A stretch of DNA of 64,000 nt. Source: a virus. Taxonomy: Duplodnaviria > Caudoviricetes. The notes beneath the pieces are model-generated. The model was not told the DNA's origin and did no database searches. It worked only from the letters and a program-made list of their open reading frames with translations. Shown piece after piece: positions 39,625 through 61,433 of this stretch. The stretch lies in the IMG/VR virus record IMGVR_UViG_3300028591_000079, positions 128,001 to 192,000 of that record; one strand, given 5' to 3'. Made by a program: the position numbers and the translations under genes. Position 1 is the first letter of the stretch, and each line of letters begins with the position of its first letter.

Positions 39625-40548
39625 ATGAAAAAAACACAAACAGTAGCATATTTGATTGATTTCATAAATTCCAATGGACAAAACATAGAATCACTAAAGC
39701 TCGCATGTGGTACAAATACAAATCTAAAAATCTATTTATGTTTGGACGAAGAAGATCTGATTTCGTATGCAAAAAAATTCAAAAAACACAAAACACCAGC
39801 GGATTTATTAGATGTTATGATAAAAAAACAACCATCAATAAATATATCAGTTGAAGTTTATGATCGTGTTGTAGAATCTGTTAGAAATGATATGGAACAG
39901 TATTTAAAATATAATGGATTCAAAATGGCAAACGCATGGGAAGATCAGGACGGGTGGGTTTCTCATTTTTTAGTTAAGTATTATTATTTTTCGAACTTTT
40001 ATAGAGATAGATGGTTTTTCCCAGAGAATCTAAAAAAAGCAACAAAAGTAAAAAAGACCTATAAAAAATATTCGGACTTTTTAAATTTAGCAAGAAAAAG
40101 CATCACAGAAGAAAGAAAAGTTCAAGCAAGAAAATGCGCAGAAAATCCAGAAGCAACACTAAGGAAAAGTTCTGTTGACACTCCAATGTTCCAAAACAAT
40201 CAACGAATTACAATGTTGGATATTACTTCTAGACAAGATGTTAGCGAAGACCAGATGTTTGATTCCTACCACGAGGCATTGTCTATAAAAAGAAAAATAA
40301 TGGAATATGCAGAGAATTTTGAAGATGGTAAATATGCAAAAAAAATACAAACAATGCTAGAAACTGGAGAATGCAAGGGTAAAAAAATAGAATTGGTACT
40401 ATTGAAAATCTTTGCTTATAAATCTGGAATAGTAACAGCAAAATCAATAAAATTCATAAATTCACTGTCAAGAACATATAAAGAAAAATTTGGAATTAGT
40501 TCTGCATTACTTAATAAACAAATGAGAGAACTTGGAATAAAAAAATAA
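39625..40548 (+). CDS. Hypothetical protein, candidate divergent sigma factor
   Basis: Weak resemblance to sigma regions 2 and 3.2 (YSDFLNLARKSITEERKVQAR; SSVDTPM..TMLDI). Confidence 0.4.
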   Translation: MKKTQTVAYLIDFINSNGQNIESLKLACGTNTNLKIYLCLDEEDLISYAKKFKKHKTPADLLDVMIKKQPSINISVEVYDRVVESVRNDMEQYLKYNGFKMANAWEDQDGWVSHFLVKYYYFSNFYRDRWFFPENLKKATKVKKTYKKYSDFLNLARKSITEERKVQARKCAENPEATLRKSSVDTPMFQNNQRITMLDITSRQDVSEDQMFDSYHEALSIKRKIMEYAENFEDGKYAKKIQTMLETGECKGKKIELVLLKIFAYKSGIVTAKSIKFINSLSRTYKEKFGISSALLNKQMRELGIKK

Positions 40549-40553
40549 AAAAA

Positions 40554-40560
40554 AGTTCTA
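40554..40560 (+). promoter_or_regulatory. Putative late promoter motif AGTTCTA
   Basis: Precedes two hairpins with no + strand ORF. Confidence 0.6.
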
Positions 40561-40564
40561 TATA

Positions 40565-40650
40565 ATGGGCACTGTGATTTTATTTTCATAGTCGAGCCCA
40601 TATCCCGGTAGTATCCAGTTTTCCTCCTTTCCCTGGATACTACCATTTTT
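40565..40650 (+). ncRNA. Putative two-hairpin small RNA with anti-SD loop (may double as a bidirectional terminator)
   Basis: Hairpin 1 at 40565-40601; perfect 12-bp hairpin 2 at 40607-40644 with loop TTTTCCTCCTTTCC; T tract after. Confidence 0.55.
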
Positions 40651-41236
40651 ATAAACTTTTCATTTTTGCCACTTCAAATAAATCTTTGGCCCACTGTGCT
40701 TTATCTCTAAGATAATGATTGTATAAAGTTTTTTCATTGCTAATCATTACGCAATCAATTTTATTATCCAAACACTCTTCAACGGTTACAGGGCCATCAT
40801 CTATAACTAAATCAATTTTATTGTCTTTGAAGGCTTTTACTTTACTATGAGAATCAGTTACTATAATGTTTTCAATGGGGATTAATATATTATTTGTTTT
40901 GAGTTGATTATATGTTTGATATTTTGCCCAACTAATCTTGTTTCCCATATAATCAACATCTGGATAAATACTTTGTCTAGATGTAACAATTTTTAGATTA
41001 TATAACAGATCCCAATTTGCAATTAGTGACGGGTATTTATTGTTTATCAGTGGAGTTGAATATCCTGGTAAAGTTCTAAATCCCATAATGATTTTTTCTC
41101 CAATATCTTTAGGATAACACTCATAAACAGCCCAGGATACTGGAGGATAATAATCTTTTTTATCATTGAAGCCCATCTTATAGACAGGCTCCAAATCAAA
41201 CACAGTATTATCTAAATCAAGTGCTATATTTTTCAT
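40649..41236 (-). CDS. HAD-family 5'(3')-deoxyribonucleotidase-like protein
   Basis: IALDLDNTV, IVTSR, K, VIDDG; ATG at 41236. Confidence 0.85.
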   Translation of the reverse strand: MKNIALDLDNTVFDLEPVYKMGFNDKKDYYPPVSWAVYECYPKDIGEKIIMGFRTLPGYSTPLINNKYPSLIANWDLLYNLKIVTSRQSIYPDVDYMGNKISWAKYQTYNQLKTNNILIPIENIIVTDSHSKVKAFKDNKIDLVIDDGPVTVEECLDNKIDCVMISNEKTLYNHYLRDKAQWAKDLFEVAKMKSL

Positions 41237-41463
41237 TGCACGATCTCTAAAGCTGATGTTGTTGCTGCATACACATCTTTTCCACAAGCTACAGTAAATG
41301 TTTCAGATTTGCGCTTTGTTGTAGATAACATTTCAATTTTTGCTGACACTTGTTCATTCATTGCTCGTGTTAACACATGGGAATTTGTAGAAACACTTAC
41401 ATCATTCCAAGTACCGCCAGAGAACACAGAAATAATTGTTAATGTTGTTGCTATACAAGACAT
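41233..41463 (-). CDS. Hypothetical protein
   Basis: GGAG RBS; fills the operon gap. Confidence 0.5.
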   Translation of the reverse strand: MSCIATTLTIISVFSGGTWNDVSVSTNSHVLTRAMNEQVSAKIEMLSTTKRKSETFTVACGKDVYAATTSALEIVQ

Positions 41464-60928: not shown

Positions 60929-60935
60929 AGTTCTA
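60929..60935 (+). promoter_or_regulatory. Putative late promoter motif AGTTCTA
   Basis: 6 nt before ATG 60942; possibly a leaderless transcript. Confidence 0.45.
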
Positions 60936-60941
60936 AAAGAT

Positions 60942-61433
60942 ATGATGAGCAAAACCGAATATCTTGTTATTTATTATATTGGTTATTCTTGGAACAAAGA
61001 AGAAATAATGAAAGCTCTTGGTATTGACAAAGAAGAGCTTGAACGTATATTGAAAAAATACAATCTCAAAATATCAAAAAATGGTATAAAAAGAGCGGCT
61101 AGAGGTAAAAGGATAGAATACACCAAAAAAAATATAATAATCAGACATGATAAAAAAACCAATGACTGCCCATTTATTTGTGTGACTGTTCATAAACAAC
61201 TAAAAACAGCAAAAAAGACGGTATATTCATTATCAATCAAAGATAACGGTAAAAAACTAAGAAAACGATCTACAAAATTGATAAAAATTCTAAAATGTCG
61301 TAATAATTTTCTAAAAGAGAACAACCAAGACAAACTAAAACAAATTAGAAAAGCTGAAATAAAATGGTTCTTGCGACATCCTTTTACAAAATTTACTTTT
61401 CCTTGGTTAGTTCAGTTGATTTCCAAACATTAA
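60942..61433 (+). CDS. Basic putative DNA-binding protein (N-terminal HTH-like)
   Basis: NKEEIMKALGIDKEELERIL; Lys-rich. Confidence 0.5.
   Translation: MMSKTEYLVIYYIGYSWNKEEIMKALGIDKEELERILKKYNLKISKNGIKRAARGKRIEYTKKNIIIRHDKKTNDCPFICVTVHKQLKTAKKTVYSLSIKDNGKKLRKRSTKLIKILKCRNNFLKENNQDKLKQIRKAEIKWFLRHPFTKFTFPWLVQLISKH

Follow-up and report, generated by a model that had tools for sequence, protein, structure and literature searches.

The DNA examined here, which we call the window, is a stretch of 64,000 nucleotides that covers bases 128001–192000 of a 231-kb viral record (32% G+C, ~96% complete). Within it, two blocks of genes on opposite strands run toward each other and end at the same place. 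The block on the plus strand contains tail, tape-measure and baseplate genes, followed by genes for DNA polymerase III alpha and a dNMP kinase and then by an orphan gene of 307 codons that ends at 40548 (stop codon 40546–40548). The block on the minus strand, which includes a gene for a ClpP-like protease along with small orphans, ends with the stop codon at 40649–40651; the 212-aa product of the convergent gene that stops there has a weak match to phrog_420, a family of unknown function. The sign of the GC skew flips at the same point. At this junction, on the plus strand at 40554–40652, lies an ordered set of elements that we refer to as the RNA unit: an AGTTCTA box, a 37-nt hairpin, a short linker, a 12-bp hairpin with a 14-nt loop, and a T tract. 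The features of the locus, by position in the window, are as follows.

39625–40548, plus strand: 307-aa gene, the last of the DNA polymerase III alpha/dNMP kinase block; its product has a predicted sigma-factor-like fold.
40554–40560, plus strand: AGTTCTA box, a promoter-like, phage-specific signal; exact in 18 of 19 variants and GTTCTA in the variant L017; mostly 4–7 nt 5′ of hairpin 1.
40565–40601, plus strand: hairpin 1 (the 5′ hairpin); sequence and length vary among relatives, with 36–48 nt in most.
40567, plus strand: predicted transcription start (G), 6 nt 3′ of the box, the distance at which purines peak; the foot of hairpin 1 in most variants.
40602–40606, plus strand: single-stranded linker; AUCC, AUUCC or AUCU, semi-conserved in most variants and commonly ending in UCC.
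40607–40644, plus strand: hairpin 2, with arms at 40607–40618 and 40633–40644 (12 bp) and a 14-nt loop at 40619–40632 that holds CCUCC at 40623–40627.
40645–40652, plus strand: U tract (A-TTTTT-A at 40645–40651), which completes an intrinsic terminator and overlaps the stop codon of the convergent gene at 40649–40651.
40649–41287, minus strand: convergent 212-aa gene, taken from the list of open reading frames; its stop codon abuts hairpin 2, and it lies outside the RNA unit and is given for context only.

An earlier, sequence-only reading of this stretch had described the box as being followed by two hairpins and by no open reading frame. The box and both hairpins are present where that reading placed them, and the letters of the hairpins are exact on direct reading. 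The sole ATG frame that follows the box is 8 codons long (from 40565); it has no Shine–Dalgarno (SD) sequence and is not kept in relatives, and for these reasons it was rejected as a plus-strand micro-ORF. Hairpin 1 consists here of an outer stem, ATGGGC/GCCCAT, and a 7-bp inner stem with one G-U pair, together with a 3-nt bulge and a loop made up of A and U only; a 5′ hairpin is predicted in the minimum free energy folds of all 19 variants of the unit. To judge by its letters, the linker that follows may be a second C-rich single-stranded patch. When the region 40549–40660 is folded as plus-strand RNA, the predicted energy is −38.1 kcal/mol, compared with −14.9 ± 3.2 kcal/mol for 200 shuffled sequences (z = −7.3), none of which folds as well; the minus strand of the same region gives −34.4 kcal/mol (z = −5.7). 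Rfam returned nothing at gathering scores over the whole window and only insignificant scores for the unit at E values up to 10, and the unit has no match to tRNA or tmRNA.

Relatives, covariation and strand

Relatives of the locus were gathered by way of the neighbouring 307-aa protein, and the sequence of the loop was not used. A large protein database contains 27 metagenome homologues of this protein (34–87% identity), and the contigs that encode them, together with an alignment-based scan of metagenome and viral collections, yielded about 35 loci. These carry 19 distinct versions of the unit, with 31–89% identity in the neighbour protein. Every locus that reaches far enough past the 307-aa gene has the complete, ordered unit, and the loci that are without it end within or just past the 307-aa gene, or within an intervening gene. 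Across all loci the unit sits 0–2 genes away from the 307-aa gene; the neighbour on the side of the convergent gene is not constant. The order of the elements is constant: the box, 4–7 nt in most cases, the 5′ hairpin, a linker of 3–6 nt, a hairpin of 10–15 bp with a loop of 11–17 nt, and a T run. A nucleotide search of the locus against deposited phage genomes returned no relatives, nor did single-protein searches of the locus with both neighbours and with DNA polymerase III alpha, and a scan of IMG/VR for the pattern of box plus loop gave one true relative and three chance matches, which are ordinary ribosome-binding sites (RBSs) read backwards. A covariance model of the unit detected no second copy in this genome or in a complete 203-kb relative, each of which has one.

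If the loop is functional, as the sequence-only reading had proposed, it should be conserved in related phages while the stems that present it covary, and this is clearly the pattern found. Across 17 aligned variants of hairpin 2, 10 of the 11 positions of the loop core, UUU-N-CCUCCUU, are invariant; outside this core the only invariant column is one T of the tail, and none of the stem columns is. Among the variants, the one variable position of the core, N, is occupied by U, C or G and never by A. In an alignment of 16 variants that was fitted to a model, and that favours structure by construction, all 12 stem pairs of hairpin 2 have changes on both sides, and 96% of the cells are paired, compared with 24–48% when the partners are slid and with none of 500 shuffles reaching so high a value. 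A plain MAFFT alignment of the six closest variants contains 8 pairs that change on both sides, which none of 500 shuffles matches. For hairpin 1, 3 pairs are changed on both sides within the closest subgroup. Folded individually, every variant adopts the common architecture, and the CCUCC region has a predicted probability of being unpaired of 0.87–1.0 in all 19.

The strand on which this structure is read can also be assigned. Within the closest subgroup, 11 G-U or U-G cells would become A-C mismatches if read on the minus strand, and several G-U cells of hairpin 1 are likewise A-C mismatches on the opposite strand; since the G-U pairs are tolerated only on the plus strand, the plus strand is the RNA strand. 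The T run after hairpin 2 is present in 18 of the 19 variants (it is weak in L036), solely on the strand that bears the box. Furthermore, the arrangement of the neighbouring genes varies. In the loci L011–L013 the genes on both sides run in the direction of the unit; in L017 the unit stands inverted with respect to the 307-aa gene, with box, hairpins and T run turned together; and in L014–L016 the convergent gene has a separate terminator of its own beside the unit. Polarity belongs to the unit and is independent of how the neighbours are arranged. As a fallback, the locus had been described as possibly a simple bidirectional terminator between convergent genes; this is ruled out by the conserved loop and the covariation, and by the retention of the unit both among co-directional genes (L011) and in inverted orientation (L017). 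We consider it very probable that the unit is a genuine structured RNA, conserved and strand-specific, whose anti-SD loop is under selection.

It is worth considering whether the opposite strand might nonetheless be the functional one, with the complement of the loop (AAGGAGG) serving as a strong SD, either for a small downstream ORF or to load ribosomes within the 3′-UTR of the convergent gene. Read in reverse complement, the loop does come close to a perfect SD, and the minus strand folds well (z = −5.7). Yet that strand offers no ATG, GTG or TTG at a suitable spacing, the reading frames beyond the loop are short and bear no relation to one another from relative to relative, the G-U pairs turn into A-C mismatches, and the U tract and box mark the other strand everywhere, including in the inverted L017. 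Such a role is scarcely credible, and the lack of a usable start codon together with the A-C mismatches led us to reject it.

Individual relatives depart from the common pattern in their own ways. The variants at L032:4130–4248 and L035:4109–4228 have a near-identical hairpin 1 and loop and wholly unrelated hairpin 2 stems; the terminator stem may either evolve much more rapidly than the remainder of the RNA or have been swapped. At L005:3429–3541 (identical at G001:C1:65817–65921), the box is closely followed by seven bases that duplicate the 3′ arm of the terminator stem. By their letters, these bases could pair with the 5′ arm of the terminator to give an alternative, anti-terminator-like fold; a box-proximal repeat of this type is not seen in the other subclades.

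The AGTTCTA box and its sigma-like neighbour

The box had been called a late motif, and its distribution does identify it as a genuine phage signal ahead of virion genes, on the grounds of both its enrichment and its position before tail and baseplate genes. Specifically, 41 of the 62 copies of AGTTCTA in the genome fall in the 9.8% of the DNA that is non-coding (binomial p about 1e-26), and AGTTCTA is the third most intergenic-enriched 7-mer, behind two SD words. Thirty of the 41 intergenic boxes face a gene start within 130 nt, and boxes are found ahead of tail tube and baseplate wedge genes. Six nucleotides past the box there is a purine in 33 of the 41 intergenic copies, and this purine is G in 14. 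A start at that distance would place the 5′ end of the RNA at ~40567, at the foot of hairpin 1, and would give RNAs of 79–103 nt across the variants. Outside the window, a box on the plus strand at G000:C1:90737 lies ~20 nt 5′ of the first tRNA in an array, which indicates that this class of box can drive stable RNAs too.

Two further boxes outside the window, both on the plus strand, are followed by RNA-like structure. At G000:C1:73112–73165, a box opposes a minus-strand block of small genes with strong SDs and has a short hairpin and a U run directly behind it; the product could be a very small late antisense RNA within what is presumed to be an early region. At G000:C1:217747–217886, an orphan box is followed by a strong fold of ~130 nt (−37 kcal/mol) that has a terminator at its end and a 20-codon frame inside, and it is either a further late non-coding RNA or a micro-protein gene.

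The constant neighbour of the unit, the 307-aa protein, has no match to a Pfam or PHROG family. Its AlphaFold model is all-helical, with two domains (pLDDT 83.5), and a Foldseek search of this model against the PDB gave nothing significant. In an all-against-representatives structure search, sigma-2 domains make up most of the top matches, the best of which has a Z of 8.4 (rmsd 2.8, 84 aligned residues), a value of a size that is common for helical proteins; residues 70–181 are the region best aligned to sigma-2, and ECF, sigma-28, sigma-B and sigma-70 entries are among the top 50. The model suggests that the protein may be a diverged sigma factor of the phage, and the one that recognises the AGTTCTA box.

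Shine–Dalgarno usage and candidate targets

The most intergenic-enriched 7-mer of the phage is AAAGGAG, which indicates that the phage uses SDs heavily. The loop had been suggested to act in an early-to-late switch in translation, in which late genes would lack the strong SDs of earlier ones. Among 316 genes, identified with a simple ORF and codon-score caller that chose starts partly on SD strength, equally across classes, those that have a box no more than 4 kb upstream carry weaker SDs (median −6.2 kcal/mol, against −7.55 for the remaining genes; p = 2e-4). The 203-kb relative shows a like difference (−5.9 against −7.6, p = 2e-5), and across 146 orthologue pairs of the two genomes the strength of the SD is conserved (rho 0.54). 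When genes are classified by their nearest promoter, the difference has p = 0.05 in this genome and p = 2e-4 in the relative. The direction agrees with the switch proposal, in that late-class SDs are weaker in two genomes, but the support is modest: the shift is only ~1–1.5 kcal/mol, and GGAGG itself is carried by only 5–15% of genes in any class, with class counts that are not significantly different.

The strongest duplexes predicted between the loop and RBSs (−12 to −16 kcal/mol) cluster in box-free small genes at 57–80 kb of the genome, and the weakest SDs and loop duplexes are in the box-rich virion blocks; very strong SDs are present at 44% of the genes in the 57–80 kb block versus 0–7% in virion blocks. 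That block (G000:C1:57000–80000, minus strand, outside the window) comprises ~50 small genes with almost no AGTTCTA boxes, and its RBSs are near-identical, consisting of AAAGGAGG and a short A/T spacer that recur verbatim before several genes. No conserved phage target was found in the two genomes compared, and their lists of top matches differ. The best match to the loop in this genome is dUTPase, which was rejected as a conserved target since it is not at the top in the 203-kb relative. Feedback on the adjacent sigma-like gene was also rejected, its RBS being weak or variable among relatives.

The pairing strength expected of the loop is relevant here. The 3′ tail of 16S rRNA reads CCUCCUU(U), with A at the position that matches N of the loop, and the commonest strong RBS of the phage (AAAGGAGGT) would favour A at this position, unlike the U, C or G observed. 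Generic pairing of the loop with SDs would be no stronger than that of 16S rRNA, so a global effect would need very high levels of the RNA.

Phage genes for ribosomal protein S21 exist, and S21 sits beside the anti-SD on the ribosome. In the window, a 163-aa ORF at 60942–61433 on the plus strand, directly after a box at 60929, resembles S21 at residues 29–63 (15–18 bits, cut-off 27); this sub-threshold stretch is the only sign of a phage S21 that we found, and it is too weak to call. As for the host, word matches of the ClpP-like protein lead to alphaproteobacterial MAGs at 57% identity, which is not decisive. The 13-mer of the loop is absent from the two MAGs matched in this way, and it occurs in 7 of 121 sampled genomes of Alphaproteobacteria, at the level of the control and never in a matching hairpin; an origin of the loop in an alphaproteobacterial host is thus unsupported by the 121 genomes sampled.

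Possible functions of the loop

We propose that the unit is a self-contained non-coding RNA gene of ~85–90 nt (79–103 nt in relatives). Transcription would begin ~6 nt past the AGTTCTA box and stop at hairpin 2 and its U tract, and the product would be composed of a freely varying 5′ hairpin, a short linker that contains C, and a terminator hairpin whose unusually large loop would keep UUU-N-CCUCCUU permanently single-stranded. Given that the loop contains the CCUCCUU(U) of the 16S tail, it could pair in trans with GGAGG-type SD regions, that is, with AAAGGAGG-type RBSs and their A-rich surroundings, and thereby keep the 30S subunit off. Its targets would be phage genes outside the late class, which have the strongest SDs, and probably host mRNAs too. 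That the unit is independently transcribed as a small RNA is likely, judging from its signals; that this RNA masks RBSs in trans is the best mechanism available to explain the loop, and we hold it in even balance. A bolder version would have the RNA accumulate in bulk late in infection and outcompete the 30S subunit at every strong GGAGG-type site, so that translation shifts from host and early messages to late virion messages, the weaker, GGAGG-poor RBSs of which would be spared. This would make the RNA a protein-free counterpart of the T4 nuclease RegB, possibly wired to the adjacent sigma-like factor, and we put it forward only tentatively, as a conceivable outcome. It should also be considered that the upstream replication operon has no terminator other than hairpin 2. 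The mRNA of that operon may therefore carry the loop at its 3′ end too, and the timing of the loop would not have to be confined to late infection.

This dual position invites the view that the unit is a terminator or 3′-UTR element and nothing else, which ends the upstream replication operon and insulates the convergent gene, with a loop that is kept for a role in cis, such as stability of the 3′ end or the binding of a factor during termination, and with no free RNA that acts in trans. Hairpin 2 does have the makings of an intrinsic terminator, in that a 12-bp stem stands directly before A-UUUUU and a stem with a T run is found in 18 of the 19 variants; it is the sole terminator-like structure after the 307-aa gene, with the U tract behind it, and it lies at the end of the 307-aa gene block in most loci. 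However, the loops of intrinsic terminators are normally 3–8 nt long and free of sequence constraint, whereas the loops here are 11–17 nt long with 10 invariant positions, and a consensus terminator scan did not list hairpin 2. A terminator would have no use for the conserved box that most of the 19 variants place 4–7 nt ahead of hairpin 1, the unit of L017 is inverted relative to the operon that it would have to terminate, and an invariant 11-nt loop core on freely changing stems is left unexplained. We therefore regard termination as an unlikely account of the whole unit. It is also improbable, in our estimation, that the loop is the seed of a specific antisense regulator, directed at a single mRNA or a handful of them, with host genes the most plausible targets, and not at SDs generally. 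The U residues that flank CCUCC are as invariant as the core, suggesting a longer, defined duplex, and the problem of stoichiometry that a global blocker faces would vanish; likewise RNAIII and CyaR, known small RNAs with anti-SD loops, act on defined subsets of mRNAs (PMC2837412). Against this, the best phage targets are not common to the two genomes, and an invariant loop offers no co-variation with a target.

The fact that no conserved phage mRNA target was found would also suit a loop that pairs with no mRNA, and that is instead a decoy of the 16S 3′ tail and titrates, in late infection, a protein that recognises the anti-SD; candidate partners are a host defence ribonuclease, an enzyme that processes the rRNA end, or a ribosomal or initiation protein. 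The loop is predicted to be single-stranded in every variant and has CCUCCUU(U)(C) in common with the usual 3′ end of bacterial 16S rRNA, but the resemblance stops at the 5′ flank, where UUU-N differs from the 16S flank and N is never the A of 16S. The U-rich flanks fit instead the A-rich surroundings of RBSs in an AT-rich genome, and no candidate partner protein is linked to the unit. A decoy is, in our view, decidedly unlikely.

Masking of RBSs in trans, the reading that we prefer, would rest on a mechanism of anti-SD-loop small RNAs that is already known in bacteria, and the unit belongs to none of the families with which it was compared. What it has in common with SD-masking RNAs as a class is a motif held unpaired and a seed that is conserved while the scaffold stems covary. 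Its putative promoter and terminator are the box and the U tract, which are conserved and co-invert with the unit, and the box is statistically enriched. The cuckoo RNAs of the Alphaproteobacteria (CcsR1–4/RSs0680, alpha-r14 and NfeR1) consist of adjacent hairpins with a conserved anti-SD-like pyrimidine loop and compensatory stems (PMC4615179, PMC10746234), and the likeness lies in an anti-SD-like loop that is the sole conserved sequence, on stems full of compensatory changes. However, the cuckoo motif CCUCCUCCC is repeated in each of 2–4 hairpins (PMC4615179), whereas here the loop motif is confined to the terminator hairpin, has the core UUU-N-CCUCCUU, and does not place CCUCCUCCC in each loop; moreover, the gene described here has no Rfam match, belongs to a jumbo phage of virulent type and is preceded by a box that is specific to the phage.

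The low-GC setting of the phage recalls RNAIII of S. aureus, which has C-rich loops on hairpins 7 and 13 and on the terminator hairpin 14, and the related small RNAs with UCCC loops, RsaE and LhrC (PMC2837412). In these, initiation at strong, unpaired SDs is blocked through contact with C-rich loops that are exposed, one of them on a terminator hairpin, as is predicted for the phage RNA. The bacterial RNAs differ in being longer or multi-seed, with defined targets and extended duplexes, and the covariance model of LhrC (RF00616) scores the unit at 15.8 bits against a gathering score of 110 (E = 4.6), which makes it no member. CyaR (RyeE) of Enterobacteria acts on the SDs of some mRNAs through a hairpin loop whose anti-SD sequence is conserved (PMC2837412). 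It resembles the unit in its length of ~85 nt and its anti-SD loop, and it is the best, though insignificant, Rfam match of the unit (RF00112; 15.9 bits against a gathering score of 47, E = 1.8); the unit is not a member, and the two differ in promoter logic and host range.

Among phages, the endoribonuclease RegB of T4 inactivates early mRNAs at the GGAG of their SDs and spares later genes with other RBSs (PMC1702504, PMC3014915). The likeness would be a functional analogy only, that of an early-message shut-off by way of the SD; RegB is a protein nuclease that is assisted by S1 and cuts, whereas the agent proposed here is a masking RNA. A search for RegB (PF10715) gave no match, but the control search matched no genome either. 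The antisense RNAs c4 (P1/P7), sar (P22) and oop (lambda) of temperate phages have loops that cover the RBS of one neighbouring gene, such as ant or cII (PMC12197685), and are alike in being phage-encoded small RNAs with a loop that, for the unit, is proposed to pair at the RBS. They differ from the unit, which has no target in cis, a late-type box and a generic anti-SD seed. In the literature that we searched, a conserved RNA with a generic anti-SD loop, behind a late-type box in a clade of jumbo phages, has not been described.

To our knowledge, transcriptomes of virulent and jumbo phages have revealed small RNAs, almost none of which has a known function. The phage small RNAs that are well understood come from temperate phages and act on a single neighbouring gene (PMC12197685). 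Here, sequence alone is enough to delineate a conserved RNA gene with a clear candidate seed, a candidate class of promoter and a mechanism that can be tested, and it links the AGTTCTA signal not only to virion genes but also to genes for stable RNAs. If general masking of RBSs were true, it would be a new route by which phages take over or re-time translation, and one can imagine an 11-nt loop on a free scaffold as a compact tool for tuning SD-dependent translation. Read cautiously, the unit is an uncatalogued RNA family that is useful for the annotation of rumen jumbo phages.

Pyrimidine-rich, anti-SD-like sequences were also noted elsewhere. Outside the window, on the plus strand at G000:C1:213663–213694, a 241-aa gene is followed by a terminator in which a 10-bp stem carries an anti-SD-like loop of 12 nt, UCCCUCCUCUCU. 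At L011:3995–4150 on the plus strand, and also in L012 and L013, a second small unit lies ~10 nt past the terminator of the RNA unit; it has a sigma-70-like promoter, an RNA with the unpaired 5′ end UCCUCCUUUCC, one hairpin and a strong terminator, and from its sequence it could be another anti-SD RNA, under a promoter of host type.
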